Positions 1-8,596 of a stretch of 8,652 nt of DNA are shown here, piece by piece. The notes below the pieces were generated by a model, which had not been told where the DNA came from, made no database searches, and saw only the letters and a program-made list of their open reading frames with translations. Origin of the DNA: a virus (Duplodnaviria > Heunggongvirae > Uroviricota > Caudoviricetes); IMG/VR virus record IMGVR_UViG_648276657_000002, positions 1-8,652 of that record. One strand, given 5' to 3'. The position numbers were made by a program, and so were the translations under genes. Each line of letters starts with the position of its first letter. Within the stretch, counting starts at the first letter, position 1.

Positions 1-30
1 AAAAAAAAAAAAACCCCCGGGGGGGGGGGG
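1..30. repeat. Homopolymer block A13-C5-G12 at the window edge; likely an assembly, tailing or engineered-junction artifact rather than native phage sequence
   Basis: Direct reading: 13 A, 5 C and 12 G in succession. On the minus strand this reads C12-G5-T13 directly after the stop of the 56..286 gene. Confidence 0.5.
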
Positions 31-55
31 TTCTACAGAGGGTTGTAGCTGGATA

Positions 56-286
56 TCATGAGTAGAAGAAGTATGCCAGTTCTGCTTTTGAGCGCAGCCA
101 TTGTCTTGTTTTACAGGCTTTAAAAAGCCCATTCATCAATACTTTACCTGGCATTTTGCGCTTACCTGTTAAGTGAGTCTGGATATAGTGACTCGTCGTT
201 CCGGCTTCCTGTGCGAAGGCTTCACGCTCATCCGGAGTAAGTGCAAGCCAGTGCTTTTTGAAATCGAAATGTCCGTTATCGCTCAT
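56..286 (-). CDS. Cro-like small HTH DNA-binding regulator (Cro/CI-type HTH), transcribed divergently from the repressor candidate
   Basis: 76-aa ORF. The segment AQEAGTTSHYIQTHLTGKRKMP resembles the Cro/YdaS-type helix-turn-helix (compare lambda Cro QSAINKAIHAGRK). It sits opposite the operator cluster and the repressor candidate, as cro does in lambda. No homology search was run. Confidence 0.5.
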   Translation of the reverse strand: MSDNGHFDFKKHWLALTPDEREAFAQEAGTTSHYIQTHLTGKRKMPGKVLMNGLFKACKTRQWLRSKAELAYFFYS

Positions 287-440: not shown

Positions 441-1025
441 ATGAAAAGTATCCAGGACGTCCGCAGGCAAAATCTCAACGACTTGATCGACCGTGAATTC
501 AATGGTGTTCAGACGCGGATGGCAGAAAAACTTGGAACTCAGGCAAATCTGGTAAACCGCTGGGCTCTTGGCAAAAAGGTTATCGGCGACCAGGTTGCGC
601 GAAAAATTGAAGCTGCCGCCAATAAACCCCGTAACTGGCTTGATATCGATCGCTCGCTTTCTCAGGAGGGGTTTCAGCCTGTCGGCCCAAGCGACATTGG
701 TCAGCTGGCGGCTCACAACCTGGAACGCTGGATGAGCGAAAGCCGCGACCTTTCAACTCAGGGAAAACTTCACCGCGCATCCGGCGTCGCCCAGGTGACA
801 ATCAGCCGCCTGTTAAACAATGAGGTCAGCGTTTCCATTTCCACCCTGGAGAATGTTGCATCCGCATTCGGGCGTCACGGCTATGAATTACTGATTCACC
901 CGCACGACCCTGCGACTATCAACTATGACCGCTCGCGCTACGCATTGTTACCCGAAACAGAGAAGGCAAAGATCGAAAGTTACATTGAATTTGTCATCAG
1001 CCAGAACGAAAAAAACAAACAATAA
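441..1025 (+). CDS. Prophage repressor candidate (CI analogue): tandem XRE-type HTH protein with no recognisable S24/LexA-like peptidase domain
   Basis: 194-aa ORF. N-terminal HTH region (QTRMAEKLGTQANLVNRWALGKK ... ARKIEAAANKPRNWLD) is typical of phage repressor HTH_XRE domains, and a second HTH-like segment follows (GVAQVTISRLLNNEVSVSISTLENVASAFG). It is flanked by operator palindromes and followed by an intrinsic terminator, matching the lambda cI position. I see no peptidase-type motif. Confidence 0.6.
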   Translation: MKSIQDVRRQNLNDLIDREFNGVQTRMAEKLGTQANLVNRWALGKKVIGDQVARKIEAAANKPRNWLDIDRSLSQEGFQPVGPSDIGQLAAHNLERWMSESRDLSTQGKLHRASGVAQVTISRLLNNEVSVSISTLENVASAFGRHGYELLIHPHDPATINYDRSRYALLPETEKAKIESYIEFVISQNEKNKQ

Positions 1026-1082: not shown

Positions 1083-1159
1083 TTACCTAATGGGTAATTT
1101 TTTTAACTCATATCTATTGACATCAAACCAAATACGCATAATTATTACCTCAACGGTAA
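1083..1159 (+). promoter_or_regulatory. Early-operon promoter (pL analogue) with two operator palindromes (OL analogue): TTACCtaatgGGTAA at 1083..1097, -35 TTGACA at 1117..1122, weak -10 near 1140..1145, TTACCtcaacGGTAA at 1145..1159
   Basis: Perfect -35 consensus hexamer; the operator motif matches the OR sites exactly; one site overlaps the -10 region, consistent with repression of the early operon. Confidence 0.5.
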
Positions 1160-1178: not shown

Positions 1179-1331
1179 ATGCAGTGGAAAATCATCAACG
1201 GTTGGTACTGCGTTACTGCATGCGGATTCATGAGCTGGAAGTTCCGCACCTTACAGGAAGGCATCAAGTGGGCTTTCGTCAGCAAAGAAGCTCGCGATGT
1301 GGCCAACGATAACGAGATATGGGAGGGCTGA
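1179..1331 (+). CDS. Small hypothetical protein (50 aa), first ORF of the early operon; not in the supplied ORF track (below its length cutoff)
   Basis: ATG at 1179 with a GAGGT Shine-Dalgarno about 8 nt upstream; translation MQWKIINGWYCVTACGFMSWKFRTLQEGIKWAFVSKEARDVANDNEIWEG; TGA stop at 1329..1331, 2 nt before the next start. No family recognised. Confidence 0.35.
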   Translation: MQWKIINGWYCVTACGFMSWKFRTLQEGIKWAFVSKEARDVANDNEIWEG

Positions 1332-1333
1332 TA

Positions 1334-1633
1334 ATGAACGTTAATCAGCAGAAAAATCTTCAAAAAATCATGCTGGCATTCGACAAGGACTACCGCCTGT
1401 CAGAACAGCTATATGACCGACAAGTTGAACTGATTGAGAGCATCCGACTTCATCAACTGTCCTCAACTTTCGACGTTGTAACAGGCAAAGGCGTTCGTCA
1501 GGAAGTGCTGGAAGCTGCTAAAGACAGCCCTGAGTTCGAAGAACTGATGGATGCCTACCGGCGCGAGGCAATGGCGATTATCGCCCGCTGGGATCTGGCG
1601 GATCAGCTTGATGGGCAGAGGGACGCGGCATGA
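1334..1633 (+). CDS. Hypothetical phage early protein (99 aa), translationally coupled to the downstream exonuclease
   Basis: The track ORF 1319..1633 is trimmed to the ATG at 1334, which has a GGGAGGG Shine-Dalgarno 7 nt upstream. Its stop TGA (1631..1633) overlaps the exonuclease ATG (1630). No family recognised. Confidence 0.55.
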   Translation: MNVNQQKNLQKIMLAFDKDYRLSEQLYDRQVELIESIRLHQLSSTFDVVTGKGVRQEVLEAAKDSPEFEELMDAYRREAMAIIARWDLADQLDGQRDAA

Positions 1634-2529
1634 TGCGGAACGCTGGAATCATGGATAGAACAAAATACATCGGAGGAAGCGATGTTGCAGGGATTCTTGG
1701 AATTAGCCCATGGCGCACCCCGCTTGAGGTTTATCTGGATAAGGTCCAGCCACGTGTCAAACCAGTAGACCCAAGCAAGCAGAAAGTTTTCACGCGTGGC
1801 CAGCGTATGGAGCCATACGTAATAGACCTGCTTTCTGAGGAAACAGGGATGGAAATCGTTCATCGCGGAAACCGCTATATCCACCGTGATTACGATTTTA
1901 TTGCAGCTGAGATCGATGCAGAAGCAGCGTCAGGCGAGAACATTGAGATCAAAACAGTTAGTCCGTTCAAAGCCAAAGAATGGGGAGAAATCCAGACAGA
2001 TGCAATTCCTGTGCATTACACGGCCCAGGCCATGCACGGGTTGATGGTTACAAACAAACAGGTATGCGTTTTCGGTGTGCTTATCGGTGGCGACGACTTC
2101 CGAATCTATCGGGTTGAGCGTGATGAAGAAACTATCCAGGCGATCTTAGAAAAAGAAATCGCTTTCTGGGACCGAGTGAAAAATCTTAACCCGCCGGAAG
2201 CTACCAGCGTAAGCGATGTATCGCTGATGTTTGAGAAAGATGCCGGGACAAGTATCGAGGTTGACGGAAAGGCACTCGCACTATTCAACGATCTACGAGA
2301 CATGAAGTCACGCAGAAAATCACTGGAAGAAGAAATAGCTATATCAGAAGAGAAGCTGAAGATGTACATGCAAGAGCACTCAGTCCTGACCCTGGACGGA
2401 AAGCCGCTCTGCACATGGAAATCTCAGATCAGCAACAGATTCGACCAGAAGCTATTCCAGTCAGTACACCCTGAGTTATTCGAAAAATTCAAAACAACAA
2501 CGACACAACGCGTCTTCAGAATGAAGTAA
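1630..2529 (+). CDS. YqaJ-type viral recombinase exonuclease (lambda Exo-like PD-(D/E)XK alkaline exonuclease), partner of RecT
   Basis: 299-aa ORF with the N-terminal YIGGSDVAGILGISPWRTPLEVY segment typical of YqaJ-family exonucleases; sits immediately upstream of recT. The start could instead be the ATG at 1633 or 1651. Confidence 0.8.
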   Translation: MMRNAGIMDRTKYIGGSDVAGILGISPWRTPLEVYLDKVQPRVKPVDPSKQKVFTRGQRMEPYVIDLLSEETGMEIVHRGNRYIHRDYDFIAAEIDAEAASGENIEIKTVSPFKAKEWGEIQTDAIPVHYTAQAMHGLMVTNKQVCVFGVLIGGDDFRIYRVERDEETIQAILEKEIAFWDRVKNLNPPEATSVSDVSLMFEKDAGTSIEVDGKALALFNDLRDMKSRRKSLEEEIAISEEKLKMYMQEHSVLTLDGKPLCTWKSQISNRFDQKLFQSVHPELFEKFKTTTTQRVFRMK

Positions 2530-2538
2530 GGAGAAAAA

Positions 2539-3561
2539 ATGTCTATCAATGCACTTAAGGCAGCGGCTACCGGTAACCAAGTTGCACATCATAATGAGAA
2601 ACCAACAACTCTGGCCGGACTTCTGGCAGACCCAAAAATAAAAGCCCAGATGGCTTTGGCACTTCCAAAGCACATGACAGCAGACCGTCTGGCGCGCATA
2701 GCAACCACAGAGATCCGAAAGGTTCCAAAACTTGCATCATGCGACCAAGCCAGCTTCCTGGGGGCAATTATGCAATGTGCCCAATTGGGTCTTGAACCAG
2801 GTGGAGCTCTTGGACACGCTTACCTGATACCGTTCGACAAACGCCAGAAAGTAAATGGAAGATGGGAAACCGTATCTACAGAAGCACAGCTGATTATCGG
2901 CTATCGCGGAATGATTGACCTTGCCCGCCGCTCTGGGCAGATCCTGAGTATCTCGGCTCGTACCGTACATACAAACGACAAATTCAGCTACTCATACGGC
3001 CTGGAAGAAACGCTCGAGCATTTACCTTGCGAAACAGGTGACCGCGGAGAATTAACGCACGTTTACGCCGTTGCACGACTGAAAGATGGCGGAGTCCAAT
3101 TTGAAGTTATGAGCCGGGCAGACGTTGAGAAAGTTCGTGCACTGAGCAAAGCCGGTAGCAGTGGCCCATGGGTTGATCACTTCGATGAGATGGCTAAAAA
3201 AACAGTAATTCGCCGACTGTTCAAATATCTTCCTGTTTCTATTGAGATGCAGAAGGCTGTTGTTATGGATGAGCGCGCTGAAGCTGGACTTAGCCAAGAT
3301 AACGCAGCTGTTATCACTGGTGAATATTCCGTAGTTGACGATGAGCGTCAACACCTATCGCCAATTTCAGATTCAGAACGAGAAGAAGCTCGAGAATATA
3401 TCATCGCGATACTTAATAGCCTGGATCCATCTGCTGAAGATGCAAAAACGATGTTCAAGCGCGCTGAAAATGAAATTAACACCATGGCTGAAAAGCTCGG
3501 TGATGAATATCACCAAAAATTCATGATGACGCTTAACGATATGCGTCCAGAATTCGAGTAA
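2539..3561 (+). CDS. recT: RecT-family single-strand annealing recombinase
   Basis: 340-aa ORF with long stretches matching E. coli Rac RecT as I recall it (LPKHMTADRLARIATTEIRKVP, LGLEPGGALGHAYLIPF, LIIGYRGMIDLARRSGQI, HVYAVARLKDGGVQFEVM, GPWVDHFDEMAKKTVIRRLFKYLPVSIEMQKAV). Strong AAGGAG RBS upstream. Confidence 0.92.
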   Translation: MSINALKAAATGNQVAHHNEKPTTLAGLLADPKIKAQMALALPKHMTADRLARIATTEIRKVPKLASCDQASFLGAIMQCAQLGLEPGGALGHAYLIPFDKRQKVNGRWETVSTEAQLIIGYRGMIDLARRSGQILSISARTVHTNDKFSYSYGLEETLEHLPCETGDRGELTHVYAVARLKDGGVQFEVMSRADVEKVRALSKAGSSGPWVDHFDEMAKKTVIRRLFKYLPVSIEMQKAVVMDERAEAGLSQDNAAVITGEYSVVDDERQHLSPISDSEREEAREYIIAILNSLDPSAEDAKTMFKRAENEINTMAEKLGDEYHQKFMMTLNDMRPEFE

Positions 3562-3569
3562 CCACCACC

Positions 3570-3588
3570 GCGGCGCCACGCGCGCCGC
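3570..3588 (+). other. GC-only hairpin (7-bp stem GCGGCGC/GCGCCGC, 5-nt loop) in the recT-alpA intergenic region, with no following T-tract
   Basis: Read directly; it lacks the U-run of a canonical intrinsic terminator. Confidence 0.4.
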
Positions 3589-3610
3589 ACTGCAACCAAG
3601 AGAGGTATTT

Positions 3611-3859
3611 ATGAAAGGTGCATTAGGTAAGAAGGAACTCCTGGCGGTGGTGCCACTGTCATGGAGCACTATCGACCGCATGGAGCGCACAGGGGAATTT
3701 CCTAAGCGCTGGTATATCACTGACAAACGCTGCGCATGGAACCGTGATGAAGTTGAGCGTTGGCTTGATGAACGTCAGGCAGCAAGCCCGGCAGAGTTCC
3801 AGGGTAAAAAGCCTCCTGTTCAGCAACGTGTATATCGTCCTGTGAGCAACGCTGCATGA
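3611..3859 (+). CDS. AlpA-family phage regulatory protein (excisionase-like winged HTH)
   Basis: 82-aa ORF; KKELLAVVPLSWSTIDRMERTGEFPKRWYITDKRCAWNRDEVERWLDER matches the AlpA/Xis-type pattern (compare LPEV..LTGLSRSTIYRL...G.FP.P..LG.R...W...EV..W); AGAGAGG RBS upstream. Confidence 0.7.
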   Translation: MKGALGKKELLAVVPLSWSTIDRMERTGEFPKRWYITDKRCAWNRDEVERWLDERQAASPAEFQGKKPPVQQRVYRPVSNAA

Positions 3860-4016
3860 GTGTGCTGCTAAGGCACTGGAGCAAATGGTCAGGATGGTAC
3901 TTATTCCTGGCCTCTGTTTCAGCATGGCTTTATCTGCTGGCATTAATTTTCAGAGAGGGTTGGATTAAGTGAGAAAGTTAAGCCGACTTGAAAAATATCA
4001 CATGAACAAGGTTTCA

Positions 4017-4268
4017 ATGCGCAGTCCGTCAAAGATTGTCGCCGTTACTCCTGCGGCGATAGAGATCGAAAAACGCGCGATTGAAAGAGAGAAAAAAGGG
4101 CAGTTCCGCATTGCCGCCCACCTTTGGCTTCAGTGTATGGATGTTGCTTCTGGTGATGTTGAGCGTGCAAGGATCGCGGTTCGCAGGGACCAATGTATCA
4201 CAAAAGGTAACGGCCTTCGCCGTGGCGACTATAGCGGTATAGGATGTTGCGGGGTAGTTTATGACTAA
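4017..4268 (+). CDS. PerC/ANR-like small transcriptional regulator candidate; the track ORF starts at GTG 3969, and the true start is uncertain (ATG 4002 or 4017)
   Basis: The segment EKKGQFRIAAHLWLQCMDVASGDVERARIAVRRDQC resembles the PerC/Pch pattern (G.WRRAA.RW.DV ... RR..C), recalled from memory and not searched. An AAGG motif lies 7 nt before ATG 4017. Confidence 0.45.
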   Translation: MRSPSKIVAVTPAAIEIEKRAIEREKKGQFRIAAHLWLQCMDVASGDVERARIAVRRDQCITKGNGLRRGDYSGIGCCGVVYD

Positions 4269-4911
4269 GAAATACACACTAATCTATGCAGATCCACCCT
4301 GGGTATACCGGGACAAAGCCGCAGATGGTAATCGCGGTGCCGGTTTTAAATATCCGGTTATGAGTGTGATGGATATCTGCCGCCTTCCTGTGTGGGATTT
4401 GGCCGATGAAAACTGTCTGTTGGCAATGTGGTGGGTGCCAACACAACCACTCGAAGCGCTAAAAGTTGTTGAAGCCTGGGGATTCCGTCTGATGACCATG
4501 AAGGGCTTCACGTGGATAAAATGTGGTAGTCGACAACCAGATAAACTGGTTATGGGTATGGGACACATGACTCGCGCCAATAGTGAAGATTGCCTGTTTG
4601 CAGTAAAGGGAAAACTACCTCCGCGCATTAATGCAGGGATCGTTCAGTCATTTACCGCACCGCGGCTTGAGCATTCAAGAAAACCAGATGTCGTTCGTGA
4701 AAAACTTGTGCAATTGTTAGGCGATGTTTCTCGCATTGAACTGTTCGCCCGCCAGTCGTCTCATGGCTTCGATGTTTGGGGTAATCAGTGCAAAGACCCG
4801 GCGGTGCAACTACACCCAGGATACGCGTTGGATATTGGCGGATTAACAAATGCATTCAGCAATTCTCCGCTTTCACCAACAGACAACCAAGGCCGGGAGC
4901 GTGCAGCATGA
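4261..4911 (+). CDS. MT-A70-family DNA N6-adenine methyltransferase (orphan phage methyltransferase)
   Basis: 216-aa ORF with the DPPW catalytic motif in context IYADPPWVY near the N-terminus. The start overlaps the upstream stop by 8 nt, and the stop TGA overlaps the next ATG. Confidence 0.8.
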
Positions 4912-5567
4912 ACCTATATCAACGCATCAATGGCGCTGACTGGTGCAATATCTTCGTCGTCGGCGATCTGCATGGGTGCTACACGCTGCTGATGAACGAA
5001 CTCGACAAAGTTTCATTCGACCCGGCGCGCGATTTGCTTATTTCCGTTGGTGACCTTGTTGACCGCGGCGCTGAAAACGTCGAATGCCTAGATTTGATTA
5101 CTATGCCGTGGTTCCGAGCTGTTCGTGGCAACCATGAGCAGATGATGCTGGATGCACTGGTCAACGGCGGAAATTTCGGACATTGGATGTCAAACGGCGG
5201 TGGATGGTGGCACCAACTTGATTCTGAGCAGGATGTGCAACTCAAATACCTTCTGCCAAAGATTACCAACCTCCCGATGATTATCGAACTGGTTACCGGC
5301 AATAAGAAGGTCGTCATCTGCCACGCAGACTACCCGCACAACGAATACGCATTCAATAAGCCAGTACCAGAAGAAATGGTGATATGGAATCGTGAGCGGG
5401 TTAGCGACGCGCAGGACGGTATTGTCTCGGAGATAACCGGTGCCGATTTGTTCATCTTCGGTCATACGCCAGCACATCACCCACTGGTGTATGCAAACCA
5501 GATGTACATCGACACAGGGGCAGTGTTCTGCGGAAATCTGACGCTTACCAAAGTCCAAGAAAGATAG
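4908..5567 (+). CDS. Lambda-type Ser/Thr protein phosphatase (calcineurin-like metallophosphatase, PrpA/PrpB / lambda ORF221 family)
   Basis: Metallophosphatase motifs GDLHG, GDLVDRG and GNHE, with an N-terminus ([12 protein letters not shown]) resembling E. coli PrpA. Start placed at the ATG at 4908 (ATGA overlap with the methyltransferase stop) rather than the track start at 4788. Confidence 0.85.
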
Positions 5568-5569
5568 AA

Positions 5570-6742
5570 TTATTTATTACTGTCTTCCATCCACTTCTCA
5601 AACTTCGACGGGGAGAACGGAATCAGATCCGTATGCTCCCCGTTAATCCAGGAATCAATCATATCGGCCCACTGCTGCAACATGTAGGCGCGCTGTCTGG
5701 CGTATTCCGCTTTGTTATATACGGCGCGCACACCTTTCTGCTCATGTGCCAGAGCCTTTTCAATCCAGTCTGAAGGATAACCAGCCTCATGCAACAACGT
5801 ACTGGCTGTACGGCGCATATCGTGTACGGTGAAGTCCTGAATATGCTCACCATCTTCATTTATTATTTTCACCGTTCTGTCGATCAGAGAGTTCAGCGCG
5901 GCATTAGATAATGGCTTCCGGAAGTTGTAACGACCAGGAACCAGATATTCACTTCCACCAGCGCACATCTGCAACCCGACCAATATATCCTGTGCCTGTT
6001 TAGGCAGGTAAATAACGTGCGCCCGGCTTCCCTTCATGCGGTCTGAAGGAATTGTCCATGTCCATTTTTTAAAATCTATTTCGTCCCACGTTGCATTGGT
6101 GAATTCGCCTTTACGAACCATAGTGATAAGCACCAGCTTTAAAGCCATTTTCATAGTACCCATAGCACCAATGGCATCCAGCGTGCGGAAGAACAGGCCA
6201 ATTTCTTCTGGTGTCAGTGTTCGCTCTCGTGGTTTAAATATGGCGATAGACGAAGGTTTAATGTCAGCCGCAGGATTAAATAAACCATGACCACGGTCAT
6301 TGGCGTGACGGTATACGCTGCTGATGATCTCCCTGGCCTGTACTGCTGTTGCACGGCCACCGCGTTCGACAATCCGGTCACACAAATCACGAACCATCGA
6401 TGTGGTAATTTCAGCCATCATTTTGTTGCCAAGAACCGGAAGTATGTCACGGTCGATCACCGCCTGTTTCATTGCGCGGGTACTGTCAGCCAGGATGACG
6501 TGTTTCATATAACTGTCGGTATGTACCGCAAACGTCTCGGCACCACGAATCTTTTTGATACCGTCACGTTTAGCCGCGGCCGGTGACTGGCCTGCTTTAA
6601 GCAGTTTCTTTGCAGCAATCAGTTCTTCCCGCGCTTCTGCCAGGCTGATACCGTCACGCCCATACTGCCCTATTACCAGTGTTTCGCGGCGACCGTTGAT
6701 ACGGTAGTCATAGCGAAACGAGACCGTGCCTGACGTAAGCAC
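5570..6742 (-). CDS. P4-like tyrosine integrase; the reading frame continues upstream to 6805 and is interrupted by an in-frame TAA (6806..6808) inside the conserved N-terminal motif, so it may be a pseudogene or an N-terminally truncated product
   Basis: 390-aa ORF from GTG. Arm-binding region (GLYVAVLTSGTVSFRYDYRINGRRETLVIGQYGRDGISLAEARE) and catalytic region (HDMRRTASTLL ... VYNKAEY) match tyrosine recombinases. Upstream in frame: GTG-L-T-D-T-K-stop-K-T-L-K-P-Q-D-K-L-Y-K-V-S-D-R-D-G-L-Y, the canonical LTDT..K..KP.DK.Y start of P4-like integrases. Confidence 0.85.
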   Translation of the reverse strand: MLTSGTVSFRYDYRINGRRETLVIGQYGRDGISLAEAREELIAAKKLLKAGQSPAAAKRDGIKKIRGAETFAVHTDSYMKHVILADSTRAMKQAVIDRDILPVLGNKMMAEITTSMVRDLCDRIVERGGRATAVQAREIISSVYRHANDRGHGLFNPAADIKPSSIAIFKPRERTLTPEEIGLFFRTLDAIGAMGTMKMALKLVLITMVRKGEFTNATWDEIDFKKWTWTIPSDRMKGSRAHVIYLPKQAQDILVGLQMCAGGSEYLVPGRYNFRKPLSNAALNSLIDRTVKIINEDGEHIQDFTVHDMRRTASTLLHEAGYPSDWIEKALAHEQKGVRAVYNKAEYARQRAYMLQQWADMIDSWINGEHTDLIPFSPSKFEKWMEDSNK

Positions 6743-6853
6743 AGCTACATACAGCCCGTCACGATCGGAGACCTTGTACAGTTTGTCCTGCGGCTTGAGG
6801 GTTTTTTATTTTGTATCGGTAAGCACAATTCACCCGTATAGAAACCATTTTCA

Positions 6854-6891
6854 TGACGGTATGAGAGTATACCTTTAAGGTAATACCGTCA
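6854..6891. promoter_or_regulatory. 9-bp perfect inverted repeat (TGACGGTAT ... ATACCGTCA, 20-bp spacer) enclosing operator-like half-sites (ATACCtttaaGGTAA at 6869..6883); candidate int regulatory or att-associated site between the integrase and guaA
   Basis: Read directly; lies in the int-guaA intergenic region where the prophage-chromosome junction is expected. Confidence 0.35.
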
Positions 6892-6940
6892 CCTGTACCG
6901 CCGAAAAATATGGTGTAGAGTGAATAGAAATGAATACATA

Positions 6941-6970
6941 AAAACAAAAACCCTCTGTAAAAACAGAGGG
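6941..6970 (-). terminator. Rho-independent terminator of guaA (stem CCCTCTG/CAGAGGG, then a T-rich run on the minus strand)
   Basis: Minus-strand read: CCCTCTG-TTTTTA-CAGAGGG followed by TTTTTGTTTT, about 50 nt downstream of the guaA stop. Confidence 0.75.
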
Positions 6971-7018
6971 TTAAATTAGTATCTGAATAGGAATGAGTTG
7001 CTATGAGTTAGCTGTTAA

Positions 7019-8596
7019 TCATTCCCACTCAATAGTCGCTGGCGGCTTGCCGCTGATGTCATACACCACGCGGGAAATACCGTTCACTTCATTGATAATA
7101 CGGTTGGAAACGCGGCCGAGGAAGTCGTACGGCAGATGTGCCCAGTGTGCGGTCATAAAGTCGATGGTTTCGACAGCACGCAGAGAGACAACCCAGTCAT
7201 ACTTACGACCATCGCCCATTACGCCAACGGAACGTACTGGCAGGAAGACGGTGAACGCCTGGCTGACTTTGTCGTACAGGTCCGCTTTACGCAGTTCTTC
7301 AATGAAGATGGCGTCAGCACGGCGCAGCAGGTCACAATACTCTTTCTTCACTTCTCCCAGAACACGAACGCCAAGGCCTGGTCCCGGGAACGGGTGACGG
7401 TACAACATGTCATACGGTAGGCCCAGCTCCAGACCAATCTTACGCACTTCGTCTTTGAACAGCTCTTTCAGCGGTTCAACCAGGCCCATCTTCATCTCTT
7501 TCGGCAGGCCACCCACGTTGTGGTGAGATTTGATGACGTGTGCTTTACCGGTTGCAGAAGCAGCAGATTCGATAACGTCAGGGTAGATGGTGCCCTGCGC
7601 CAGCCACTTCACGTCTTCCAGTTTCAGCGCTTCTTCATCGAATACTTCAACGAAAACGCGACCGATAATTTTACGTTTTGCTTCCGGATCGTTTTCGCCA
7701 GCCAGCGCTGACAAGAAGCGATCTTCTGCCGGTACGTGAACAATGTTCAGACCAAAGTGATCGCCAAACATATCCAGAACCTGCTCTGCTTCGTTGAGAC
7801 GCAGCAGGCCGTTGTCGACGAATACGCAAGTCAGGTTTTTACCGATAGCGCGGTGCAACAGCATTGCGGTAACGGAGGAATCCACGCCACCAGAGAGGCC
7901 GAGGATGACTTTATCGTCGCCCACTTGCTCGCGGATGCGGGCTACAGCGTCGTCGATAATTTTCGCTGGCGTCCACAGGGCTTCACACTGGCAGATATCA
8001 CGCACAAAACGCTCCAGCATGCGCATACCCTGGCGGGTGTGAGTCACTTCCGGGTGGAACTGTACGCCATAGAAGCGTTTTTCTTCGTTGGCCATGATGG
8101 CAAACGGGCAGCTTTCGGTGCTGGCTACGGTGACGAAGTCGGACGGGATAGCGGTAACTTTATCGCCGTGGCTCATCCAGACGTCCAGCAGCGGTTTACC
8201 ATCTGCGGTCAGCGCATCTTCGATACCGCGAACCAGTGCGCTGTCGTTTACGACTTCAACCTGCGCGTAGCCAAATTCACGTTCGTTAGAGGCTTCAACG
8301 TGACCGCCCAACTGCATTGCCATGGTCTGCATGCCATAGCAAACGCCGAATACCGGTACGCCTGCTTCAAAGACATACTGCGGCGCACGCGGGCTGTTTT
8401 CTTCGGTGGTGCTTTCCGGGCCGCCGGAAAGAATAATGCCGCTTGGATTGAAGTCACGAATTTGTGCTTCTGTCACATCCCACGCCCACAGTTCGCAGTA
8501 AACACCCAGCTCACGCACGCGGCGCGCAACTAGTTGAGTGTACTGAGAACCGAAGTCCAGAATGAGGATGCGATGCTTATGAATGTTTTCCGTCAT
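7019..8596 (-). CDS. guaA: GMP synthase (glutamine-hydrolysing), full length
   Basis: 525-aa ORF beginning [40 protein letters not shown] and ending ATIEWE, recognised as enterobacterial GuaA; includes the class I glutamine amidotransferase domain and the SGGVDSS ATP-pyrophosphatase motif. Confidence 0.97.

Follow-up and report, generated by a model that had tools for sequence, protein, structure and literature searches.

The window, that is, the whole stretch of 8,652 nucleotides that we analysed, carries a gene of the PerC family at 3969..4268 (+). We are nearly certain that this is a real gene and the orthologue of epsilon15 gp31, named gp34 in phage phiV10. The best overall explanation, with a probability of about 0.6, is a PerC protein of the gp31/gp34 type that belongs to an early phage operon and would interfere with a host regulator.

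The frame, read from a GTG and with its stop included, was identified from the open reading frame list, Pfam and PHROG. Its product has 99 amino acids, with a computed mass of 11.2 kDa and a pI of 9.8. It matches phrog_868 over its full length (207 bits, E 5.7e-62, 1-99/99), is identical to phiV10 gp34 and shares 78% identity with epsilon15 gp31. RefSeq already labels it "PerC family transcriptional regulator". Neither the gene nor its place in the family is therefore new: both can be found in RefSeq, in PHROGs and in the entries of phiV10 and epsilon15. Taken from the equivalent start, phiV10 gp34 and epsilon15 gp31 have the same 99-aa length and the same neighbours, and integration at guaA is common to them. 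The epsilon15-type orthologues begin with ATG, whereas the present copy begins with GTG. Likewise, phiV10 carries DUF1382 as downstream cargo and the present copy a phosphatase. Compared with phiV10 gp34, epsilon15 gp31 and PHROG 868, the present gene shows no difference of substance.

The selection pressure supports this frame. Against the epsilon15 and BUCT554 orthologues, the pN/pS values are 0.09-0.32, and those of codons 2-16 lie in this same range, equal to the remainder of the gene. Purifying selection spans the whole frame. We found 134 homologues of the protein, which keep its length and 16 invariant residues. Together with the full-length phrog_868 match and a PF06069 score above the gathering value (see below), they confirm the proposal of the first-pass annotation that this open reading frame is a gene. 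Two further open reading frames, 4029..4277 (-) and 4081..4242 (+, in another frame), were rejected as spurious, since selection falls on the PerC frame. As for the "membrane protein" given with the phiV10 match, it corresponds to gp35, which lies further upstream, and to neither of these two. The base composition around the gene presents nothing unusual.

The first-pass annotation had left the start uncertain among GTG 3969, ATG 4002 and ATG 4017. This caution was justified. All three codons are present, and the public annotations differ in their choice. The PGAP model in APEC O1 starts at ATG 4017 (83 aa) and the phiV10 RefSeq model at ATG 4002 (88 aa), while epsilon15, BUCT554 and the PHROG profile start at the position of GTG 3969 (99 aa). 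Epsilon15, BUCT554, Tyrion and a Klebsiella phage have an ATG at that position. Among 49 homologues, at least 90% keep H11, while M12 and M17 are not conserved. We rejected both internal starts because their Met codons are missing from most orthologues, and because the conserved K9, Y10 and H11, as well as the purifying selection, reach upstream of both. With an ATG in the orthologues, no conserved internal Met, and upstream codons under purifying selection, the comparison of sequences makes GTG 3969 very probably the start. There is strong support for translational coupling between this start and the end of the 38-aa membrane reading frame just before it. If GTG is the true start, the E. coli RefSeq (83 aa) and phiV10 (88 aa) models are too short, and they probably drop 16 or 11 conserved N-terminal residues. 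Cloning from these models would mean testing a truncated protein.

Three parts can be distinguished along the protein. The first is an N-terminal extension specific to the subfamily (aa 1-34; 3969..4070, +), part of which precedes the alternative starts ATG 4002 and ATG 4017. In the AF2 model, a linker joins a predicted helix at residues 6-18 to a second one at 28-42, whose beginning still belongs to this part. The second is the PerC/ANR-type helical core (aa 35-80; 4071..4208, +), recognized by the Pfam match and by the conserved A37, E41, A49, A50, W53, R72/R73 and C76. Its pLDDT is 83-91. The third is a conserved C-terminal tail (aa 81-99; 4209..4265, +), which is predicted to be disordered. 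Within the tail, G90 and Y98 never vary among the 49 homologues, of which at least 90% keep N81, Y88, G95 and V96. Residues 87-99 have a pLDDT below 50, and the model presents a 17-residue tail without secondary structure. This tail takes the place of the C-terminal half of PerC/Pch. Several distant relatives, mostly of the longer form (~140-150 aa), also have Y-x-G-[IVL] at +11/+12 after their conserved Cys. It is plausible that the conserved disordered Y-S-G-I...G-V-V-Y-D tail is a partner-binding motif.

The AF2 model is all-helical, with four helices, and was built on a shallow alignment of 49 sequences that are at least 59% identical. Pfam detected no HTH family in the 99-aa protein. A PDB sequence search with it gave no relative (best E 0.99), and Foldseek of the model against PDB gave no significant match (best MIT domains, E 0.3, TM ~0.4). 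Among solved structures, MIT/TPR-like protein-interaction bundles come closest, but these matches are insignificant and we take them only as "small helical bundle". A weak Pfam MIT match below threshold was disregarded.

The whole protein reaches 30.1 bits with the Pfam PerC model PF06069, against a gathering score of 22.6 (E 6e-7). The epsilon15 and Klebsiella-phage orthologues also pass, with 24.2 and 26.2 bits. A profile of the subfamily retrieves 72 proteins among 1.84 billion representatives, and all of the 40 matches that were scanned back (the query and 39 distant relatives) belong to PF06069 (best E 5.1e-24). Both searches bear out the PerC signature that had been proposed in FRIAAHLWLQCMDVASGDVERARIAVRRDQC, residues 46-76 of the product. 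A49, W53, R73 and C76 are invariant against the 39 distant relatives. YfdN, the EDL933 Pch-type protein, a Salmonella plasmid PerC and a Sodalis ANR all retain A37, E41, A49, A50, W53 and C76. A tblastn search of the core against plasmids gave only matches of E ~1, used as comparison sequences and not as evidence.

Nevertheless, the alignment covers only model positions 5-50 of 90, the N-terminal half, and the C-terminal half is absent. The 104-aa Pch-type protein of EDL933 aligns to positions 1-89 with 149 bits. YfdN, like the present protein, matches a part only (positions 5-56). PerC from EPEC pEAF and group-1 Pch from EHEC prophages share the Pfam family with the present protein. They are small and mobile-borne, and a protein of 99 aa on a guaA-integrated epsilon15-like prophage agrees with this family trait. 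The common core is ExxG-[LQ]-[YF]-R-x-A-A-x-x-W...R...A-x-[RK]-R-x-x-C. PerC and Pch are without a known DNA-binding domain (PMC4764244). However, the core of PerC and Pch has no extension before it and is followed by a different C-terminal half of ~50 aa. In the present protein, an N-terminal extension of 34 aa precedes the core and a 19-aa Y-S-G-I...V-Y-D tail follows it. This extension and this tail are not found in the studied PerC, Pch or ANR proteins. The location also differs: the EDL933 Pch-type gene that we examined lies downstream of a lysis cassette, and the present gene lies in the early-left operon.

YfdN, from the K-12 cryptic prophage CPS-53, has the same core (29% identity over 49 aa; Pfam PerC, 36 bits). 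Its gene is in the prophage early region, directly upstream of the DNA methyltransferase gene yfdM, and the present gene has a similar position. In contrast, YfdN-type proteins (~140-165 aa) have a winged-helix-like N-terminal domain of ~95 aa, absent from the present protein. Several of the longer ones share the Y-x-G-[IVL] motif at +11/+12 after the Cys.

The earlier label "PerC/ANR-like" stands only in its first half. With the NCBIfam ANR model NF033650, the protein scores 23.6 bits (E 3.4e-5), below the cut-off of 32. The same model is matched weakly by 31 of the 40 scanned proteins, the query included. Seven residues are highly conserved in the ANR family: A10, E14, A22, W26, A29, W43 and R47 (PMC4983702). 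Aligned with the Sodalis ANR, the 99-aa protein has five of them (A37, E41, A49, W53 and R72), with C56 and R68 at the positions of A29 and W43. The EDL933 Pch-type protein has the same substitution pattern. ANR proteins are defined by a size under 10 kDa and three helices over the whole protein, and here we observe 11.2 kDa and four helices plus a tail. Given a score under the cut-off and two missing signature residues, we rejected membership in the ANR family.

The gene belongs to a compact chain on the plus strand. Upstream are a YqaJ-type exonuclease (1630..2529) and RecT (2539..3561), both supported by Pfam and by PGAP in APEC O1, and assigned to the same operon. They are followed by an AlpA-type excisionase/regulator gene (3611..3859, +; Phage_AlpA, 24.4 bits against 21; phrog_66 excisionase). 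Its stop overlaps ATG 3856 (ATGA), the start of a 38-aa single-pass membrane reading frame (3856..3972, +; GRAVY 0.67). The latter is annotated in phiV10 (gp35), epsilon15 (gp32) and Tyrion, and its peptide is conserved. Its TGA overlaps the GTG of the PerC-like gene (GTGA); in epsilon15 and Tyrion the overlap is ATGA. The ATG of an MT-A70 DNA adenine methyltransferase gene (4261..4911, +; Pfam MT-A70, E 3.8e-22; phrog_359; PADLOC MTase_II) lies 8 nt within the 3' end of the PerC-like gene. Last in the operon is a NinI-like Ser/Thr phosphatase gene (4908..5567, +; Pfam Metallophos; phrog_246; NCBIfam PRK11439 under its cut-off), and its start overlaps the methyltransferase stop (ATGA). Successive genes thus overlap by 4 or 8 nt. 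The order alpA/xis, membrane reading frame, perC-like, MT-A70 methylase and phosphatase, after exo and recT, is strongly supported as one chain. In PADLOC, the methylase (MTase_II) was the sole match; the PerC-like protein, the phosphatase and the small open reading frames gave none. The Rfam scan of the whole window gave no match.

A candidate for the early-left promoter precedes these genes. It is a σ70-like site, TTGACA-17-AATTAT, at 1117..1145 (+), the best of the scan with 10/12 matches. Two operator-like palindromes, TTACC-N5-GGTAA at 1083-1097 and 1145-1159, bracket it. Further copies are located in the immunity region (323-337 and 371-385) and upstream of int (6869-6883). The sites belong to the repeat families D1, D2 and I3-I6. 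In total, there are 5 matches versus 0.13 expected, and 5 were reached in 0/200 shuffles. The promoter and the operators are defined by consensus and repeat matches only. A repressor-like gene with two HTH domains (441..1025, +; Pfam HTH_3), of the type of phiV10 gp40, where it is annotated, and epsilon15 gp38, is followed by a terminator-like hairpin at 1046-1065 in the terminator scan. Between the 1117..1145 promoter and 5567, the scan gave no terminator-like site on the plus strand. The whole chain, 1179..5567, would be the early-left operon, driven from the promoter-like site at 1117-1145. Because this site is flanked by palindromes shared with the immunity region, the PerC-like gene would stay silent as long as lysogeny is stable, and induction or infection would turn it on. 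On these motifs, we consider early, repressor-controlled expression somewhat favoured.

The first-pass annotation also placed the gene in a prophage, and the context agrees. A P4-type tyrosine integrase gene is at 5570..6826 (-), from PGAP coordinates mapped from APEC O1, translation and alignment. The prophage/chromosome junction is the att core ATTGAGTGGGAATGATT at 7017..7033 (-), an exact match with 0 expected by chance. It overlaps the stop codon of guaA (7019..8596, -). Both the core sequence and the integration at guaA are known for vB_EcoP_ZX5 (PMC9782041). A Uetakevirus-type prophage at the guaA 3' end is strongly supported. Codon 7 of int (6806-6808) is TAA in the window, so this prophage copy may be defective.

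The operon segment with the PerC-like gene is present in 640 of 5426 complete E. coli genomes (~12%). The synteny of recT, alpA/xis, the small membrane reading frame, the PerC-like gene, small open reading frames in some cases, a DNA methylase and int is conserved in phiV10, epsilon15, BUCT554, Tyrion, a Klebsiella phage and APEC O1. Nearly all enterobacterial epsilon15-like phages of the collection have the gene. Most of the hosts of these carriers are Salmonella, Klebsiella, Enterobacter and ExPEC/APEC-type E. coli. Phage vB_EcoP_ZX5 carries the same protein. In addition, phiV10 and TL-2011b infect O157:H7 and O103:H25.

Regarding the mechanism, action through protein-protein contacts, as an anti-silencer, is a tentative proposal by analogy with studied relatives. 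A protein without a recognisable DNA-binding motif would interfere with silencers (H-NS/StpA/Hha) or another host regulator, and transcription would be altered. As a result, phage genes, and incidentally host genes, would be de-silenced during lytic development. Previous works give the basis for this analogy. Pch, which is not homologous to any DNA-binding protein, relieves the silencing of AT-rich promoters by H-NS/StpA/Hha (PMC4764244). Aar, without a DNA-binding domain, binds AggR and H-NS (PMC4983702, PMC5570504), and Rnr binds H-NS and Ler (PMC10148876). However, H-NS did not co-precipitate with PchA, and ChIP places Pch on DNA (PMC4764244), so the mechanism of the family itself is unsettled. 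Another point against the best explanation is the partial match to the PerC model, limited to one half of it and to a modest 30 bits. Lysogeny of vB_EcoP_ZX5 left host adherence, biofilm and virulence all unchanged (PMC9782041). This null phenotype fits a role at induction only, and equally no effect on the host.

The protein could act instead as a phage-specific transcription activator, directly on phage promoters, such as those of late, lysis or serotype-conversion genes, by binding DNA or RNA polymerase. We regard this as unlikely, although several observations agree with it. The conservation in nearly all enterobacterial epsilon15-like phages suggests a phage-centred role, and the protein is basic (pI 9.8). 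In many distant relatives the core is fused to an N-terminal winged-helix domain, so it often works beside DNA. In ChIP-chip, Pch was located at specific AT-rich chromosomal sites (PMC4764244). Nevertheless, Pfam gives the protein no DNA-binding motif of its own. The "transcriptional activator" label in phage records derives from the Pfam name and not from a test. In the lambdoid genome layout, late activators are usually placed after the replication genes, but this gene is in the left operon, with recombination and integration genes.

More doubtful still is an anti-activator role of the ANR type, in which the protein would bind a host AraC/XylS-family regulator and keep it from binding DNA, in the way that Aar acts on AggR. 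The members of that family (Aar of EAEC, Rnr of EPEC/Citrobacter and Cnr) share with the present protein a helical core with A, E, A, W, R and C equally spaced, and both are without a DNA-binding domain. ANR proteins act by protein-protein binding to H-NS-family and, for Aar, AraC-family proteins (PMC4983702, PMC5570504, PMC10148876), and they bind distantly related AraC proteins promiscuously (PMC4983702). The weak ANR match and five of the seven signature residues, plus the Cys, go in the same direction. Conversely, the sub-threshold score, the replacement of A29 and W43, and the mass and helix number outside the ANR definition count against it. ANR proteins have ~55-75 aa, compared with 99 aa here. 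The present gene is not beside an AraC-family gene and is not known to be under the control of one, and such a gene is absent from the window and from the related phage loci that we examined.

The first-pass annotation had suggested that the prophage activates the LEE through ler. A Pch-like activator of ler/LEE1 or another host virulence regulon now seems very improbable. The Pfam family is common to PerC and PchA/B/C, and the identity to the EDL933 Pch-type protein is 40% over 40 core residues. The O157:H7 and O103:H25 hosts of phiV10 and TL-2011b presumably carry the LEE, and cross-talk is conceivable there. However, most carriers are ExPEC/APEC-type E. coli, Salmonella, Klebsiella and Enterobacter, and to our knowledge these lack the LEE. 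In 2005, Porter et al. reportedly tested PerC homologues on LEE1. Model positions 51-90, present in the full-length EDL933 protein, are missing here, and the lysogen probably does not express the gene. LEE activation is a property of PerC and, among Pch, only of group 1 (PchA/B/C), not of PchD/E (PMC6265319, PMC4764244). PchD and PchE are closer to PchABC than the present protein and do not activate the LEE (PMC6265319). Adherence and virulence were unaltered in the ZX5 lysogen (PMC9782041). Because of the partial model, the restriction of LEE activation to group-1 Pch, the hosts of the carriers and this null phenotype, the proposed LEE role is not supported. Finally, a chance reading frame or decaying, non-functional remnant, as the int TAA and the differing annotated starts might suggest, is practically dismissed by purifying selection over the full frame, by the length and invariant residues kept in 134 homologues, and by identity to the protein of a viable phage, phiV10.

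Returning to interference with a host regulator, a broader version of it can be drawn by analogy, and we consider it rather unlikely. The epsilon15-type PerC-like proteins would be core early anti-silencing factors of temperate Uetakeviruses, and PerC/Pch, perhaps also the ANRs, would be domesticated offshoots. The helical core and the disordered Y-S-G-I...G-V-V-Y-D tail would neutralise xenogeneic silencing of the H-NS/StpA type or another host regulator. An ancestral phage module would then exist in four architectures: the core alone; the core with the Pch C-terminus; a winged helix with the core; and an N-terminal helix with the core and the tail. The Uetakevirus proteins would be the temperate-phage counterpart of T7 gp5.5. 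The T7 gene 5.5 protein is a phage-encoded H-NS inhibitor (cited in PMC5570504, PMC13502914). The likeness is a hypothetical, functional analogy only: if the favoured hypothesis holds, both are small early proteins that neutralise H-NS. No relationship of sequence or fold was found or is claimed.

As the evidence stands, the significance is small and the gene is already catalogued. It represents a phage-core branch of the PerC/ANR superfamily, in an operon segment carried by ~12% of the complete E. coli genomes. If the protein is an antagonist of H-NS or of a transcription factor at induction, it would give a phage-biology rationale to a family known only from virulence regulation. In that case, phiV10 and ZX5 would be a simple system for settling the mechanism of PerC/Pch.

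The open reading frame at 3969..4268 (+) gives a protein of 99 aa when translated from GTG 3969. The first-pass annotation had placed a candidate PerC/ANR-like regulator here. The segment it quoted is present (exactly residues 46-76), and its three candidate starts, GTG 3969, ATG 4002 and ATG 4017, were all found in the window. The Pfam PerC model (PF06069) matched the protein with 30.1 bits (E 6e-7), above the curated cut-off of 22.6 bits. Likewise, PHROG 868 ("transcriptional activator") matched with 207 bits, covering 99/99 profile positions. A collection of 5.8 billion proteins contains 134 detectable homologues, and comparison with the epsilon15 and BUCT554 orthologues gives this frame a pN/pS of 0.25-0.30. 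Because of the two profile matches, the homologues and the low pN/pS, the sequence comparisons indicate that this is not a chance product; a non-functional frame is extremely improbable.

Of 5426 complete E. coli genomes, 640 contain the 2.1-kb segment surrounding the PerC-like gene. Among the best matches, with ~98% identity, are APEC O1, an ST95 strain and an O25b:H4-ST131 strain. In matching genomes, PGAP names the product "PerC family transcriptional regulator". Phages phiV10, O157 typing phage 10, TL-2011b, ZX5, PAS61 and others have a protein match of 98-99%; at 99%, the GTG start codon is the sole difference. Identity is ~78% to epsilon15 and SPN1S-type Salmonella phages and 64-74% to the Enterobacter and Klebsiella phage versions. 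In a capsid search of the collection, almost all enterobacterial epsilon15-like phages carry the gene, and it is absent from the Burkholderia, Bordetella and Pseudomonas phages sharing the capsid module.

Public annotations use three different starts for this gene, so the doubt expressed earlier about the start was real. The PGAP model in APEC O1 has 83 aa from ATG 4017, and the phiV10 RefSeq model has 88 aa from ATG 4002. The epsilon15 and BUCT554 models and the PHROG profile have 99 aa, from the position of GTG 3969. The codon at this position is ATG in epsilon15, BUCT554, Tyrion and the Klebsiella phage. The equivalents of M12 and M17 in homologues are mostly not methionine (L, A, H, Q among others). 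An L-x-[RK]-L-E-K-Y-H motif is kept upstream of both internal ATGs, with H11 in at least 90% of 49 homologues. In codons 2-16, pN/pS (0.09-0.32) does not differ from that in the remainder of the gene. GTG 3969 overlaps the TGA stop of a conserved 38-aa membrane ORF (GTGA; ATGA in epsilon15 and Tyrion), and a stop/start overlap of this kind is a classic arrangement for translational coupling. BUCT554 is without the upstream overlap and presents instead a GAGGA Shine-Dalgarno sequence before its ATG. Further overlaps exist between alpA and the small ORF (ATGA), the PerC-like and methylase genes (8 nt), and the methylase and phosphatase genes (ATGA). The ATG in orthologues, the upstream conservation, the selection on codons 2-16 and the GTGA overlap favour GTG 3969 as the start. 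The models in E. coli RefSeq and phiV10 seem to be cut short at the N-terminus.

The Pfam match is limited to aa 35-80, corresponding to model positions 5-50 of 90. We aligned this core with YfdN from K-12, a 104-aa full-length PF06069 protein from EDL933, a Salmonella plasmid PerC and a Sodalis ANR. A37, E41, A49, A50, W53 and C76 are invariant. We presume from its gene's position after a lambdoid lysis cassette that the EDL933 protein is a group-1 Pch. The PerC-like protein is 40% identical to the EDL933 protein over 40 aa and 29% identical to YfdN over 49 aa. The parts outside the core are subfamily-specific: an N-terminal extension of 34 aa and a tail of 19 aa. The tail has two invariant residues, G90 and Y98, and four nearly invariant ones, N81, Y88, G95 and V96. 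AlphaFold2 (49-sequence alignment, mean pLDDT 74.8) predicted four helices, at 6-18, 28-42, 46-59 and 63-82. Block-averaged pLDDT was 83-91 over residues 31-80, which contain the core, and <50 in the tail. Since the tail is conserved yet predicted disordered, the model suggests a segment that may fold on a partner. No solved relative was found by sequence, and the best fold comparison, with MIT three-helix bundles, was not significant (E 0.3).

As a reciprocal test, a search with the subfamily profile (HMMER, 1.84 billion representative proteins, E of 1e-3 or better) found only 72 proteins. The core is common to 39 distant full-length matches, all of them (39/39) with a PF06069 match, and 31 of the 40 proteins scanned, query included, weakly matched the ANR model. 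The core appears in four architectures. It stands alone (~55-80 aa, ANR-like), with a C-terminal extension (PerC/Pch type), after an N-terminal winged helix (~140-165 aa, YfdN type), or between an N-terminal extension and a tail (epsilon15 type). The PerC-like protein and several distant relatives, the latter mostly of the longer N-terminal-domain form, have a Y-x-G-[IVL] motif that follows the conserved Cys by 11-12 residues. This motif hints that the epsilon15 type might be nearer to that branch than to Pch.

The NCBIfam ANR model gave 23.6 bits, under its cut-off of 32 bits. Seven conserved residues make up the ANR signature: A10, E14, A22, W26, A29, W43 and R47 (PMC4983702). The PerC-like protein keeps five of them (A37, E41, A49, W53, R72). 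However, C56 and R68 replace A29 and W43, and the EDL933 Pch-type protein deviates alike. The protein is also above the ANR size definition (11.2 kDa, four predicted helices), and no AraC-family gene is near its gene. For these reasons, its sequence places it in the PerC family in the Pfam sense, and ANR membership as curated is excluded. It means that only the PerC half of the earlier label stood.

The window represents the early-left arm of a Uetakevirus prophage, similar to epsilon15 and phiV10. At its left end lies a small gene of the rightward arm, a phiV10 gp41 homologue (56..286, -). Downstream of it, at 10-34 (-), a terminator-like hairpin has a long C run and G run, then a T run (CCCCCCCCCCCCGGGGG TTTTTTTTT). 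Its position matches the annotated terminator after phiV10 gp41, and such homopolymer runs are prone to sequencing error. The plus strand carries a two-HTH repressor-like gene (441..1025), a terminator-like hairpin (1046-1065), two small genes (1179..1331 and 1334..1633), the YqaJ exonuclease (1630..2529), RecT (2539..3561), the AlpA-type excisionase (3611..3859), the 38-aa membrane ORF (3856..3972), the PerC-like gene, the MT-A70 adenine methylase (4261..4911) and a NinI-like Ser/Thr phosphatase (4908..5567). The P4-type integrase (5570..6826) and host guaA (7019..8596) are on the minus strand. The att core ATTGAGTGGGAATGATT at 7017-7033 overlaps the guaA stop codon, and the same core was published for phage vB_EcoP_ZX5 (PMC9782041).

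The exo and recT genes are separate ORFs here and one fused gene (gp37) in the phiV10 annotation. The 38-aa ORF (MSVLLRHWSKWSGWYLFLASVSAWLYLLALIFREGWIK; phiV10 gp35 / epsilon15 gp32) has one hydrophobic helix and overlaps alpA and the PerC-like gene by 4 nt each; it has no PGAP annotation in APEC O1. Small ORFs lie between the PerC-like and methylase genes in epsilon15, BUCT554, Tyrion and the Klebsiella phage. The cargo from methylase to int is mosaic (window 4908..5567 vs phiV10 6940..7134). It consists of the phosphatase in this prophage and APEC O1, a DUF1382 gene in phiV10, and a transacetylase-repressor gene in epsilon15. The order of a PerC-family gene followed by a DNA adenine methyltransferase recurs in the unrelated cryptic prophage CPS-53 of K-12 MG1655, as yfdN then yfdM (3113..3882 of that region vs window 3969..4911). 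The yfdM gene is a Dam-type fragment, and the methylase families differ (MT-A70 in the window, Dam PF05869 in CPS-53). This order could be a functional link or merely a shared operon position.

Codon 7 of the integrase gene, within 6806-6820, is TAA in the window, with AAA TAA AAA ACC vs AAA TTA AAA AAC in APEC O1 and phiV10. The TAA version occurs in 0 of 536 complete E. coli genomes with that segment (best match 96.9% over 65 nt). The aligned bases fit either two substitutions or a -1/+1 indel pair in the T and C runs, and such a pair could be a sequencing artefact. If the TAA is real, the integrase would be disabled or N-terminally truncated; the longest intact ORF restarts at GTG 6742, with 390 aa.

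The strongest sigma-70-like site in our scan, TTGACA-17-AATTAT at 1117-1145 (+), lies just past the terminator of the repressor gene. From this site to the end of the phosphatase gene, the terminator scan found no plus-strand terminator-like sites. The window has five TTACC-N5-GGTAA palindromes vs 0.13 expected, and none of 200 shuffles reached five. Two copies are in the divergent immunity region (323-337, 371-385), two are on either side of the promoter-like site (1083-1097, 1145-1159), and one is upstream of int (6869-6883). The phage repressor probably uses these copies as operators. We infer an early-left operon under repressor control that includes the PerC-like gene; the lysogen would not express the gene, and induction or infection would switch it on.

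According to previous works, Pch has no homologues among DNA-binding proteins. LEE1 activation by Pch occurs only under H-NS/StpA (with Hha) silencing, and Pch lowers H-NS occupancy; PchA did not co-precipitate H-NS, and ChIP found Pch on AT-rich DNA (PMC4764244). PerC additionally affects the fim switch and genes for nitrate reduction (PMC5293775). Aar, which lacks a DNA-binding domain, binds H-NS and AraC proteins, AggR among them (PMC4983702, PMC5570504), and Rnr binds H-NS and Ler (PMC10148876). Considering this literature, the most economical hypothesis, with a tentative probability of roughly 0.3, is that this small early protein interferes, through contact between proteins, with H-NS-type silencing complexes or with another host regulator. 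It would help phage gene expression, and incidentally affect host genes, during lytic growth. The Salmonella IncI1 plasmid pSA20021456.1 (1941..3024) carries a full-length PerC-family gene and, two genes downstream of it, hha, which encodes the H-NS co-repressor. This single case fits a PerC family tied to H-NS silencing. Phage ZX5 carries the same PerC-like protein. Its lysogeny left growth, biofilm, stress responses, HeLa adherence and virulence unaffected, in a study that examined only repressor, anti-repressor and integrase (PMC9782041).

A direct activator of phage promoters is a weaker possibility; the Pfam profile search detected no HTH or other DNA-binding family in the protein. Unlikely, too, is an ANR-like anti-activator of an AraC-family protein, considering the features that separate this protein from curated ANR. 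Activation of the LEE via ler, the role first suggested for the gene, is doubtful in the extreme. As a general role it fails because the C-terminal half of PerC/Pch is missing, the gene is probably off in lysogens and, to our knowledge, most of its hosts lack the LEE. Moreover, a protein of this family need not activate the LEE, as PchD and PchE show (PMC6265319).

Public annotation already includes the PerC-like gene, with its family label and synteny; the gene is known, and the finding is an ordinary one. What is added here is an argued choice of GTG as the start, together with the apparent truncation of the E. coli RefSeq and phiV10 models, and the domain anatomy: half a PerC domain, a subfamily-specific N-terminal helix and a conserved tail predicted to be disordered. 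To these we add the operon and operator context, in which the gene would be under the control of the phage repressor.
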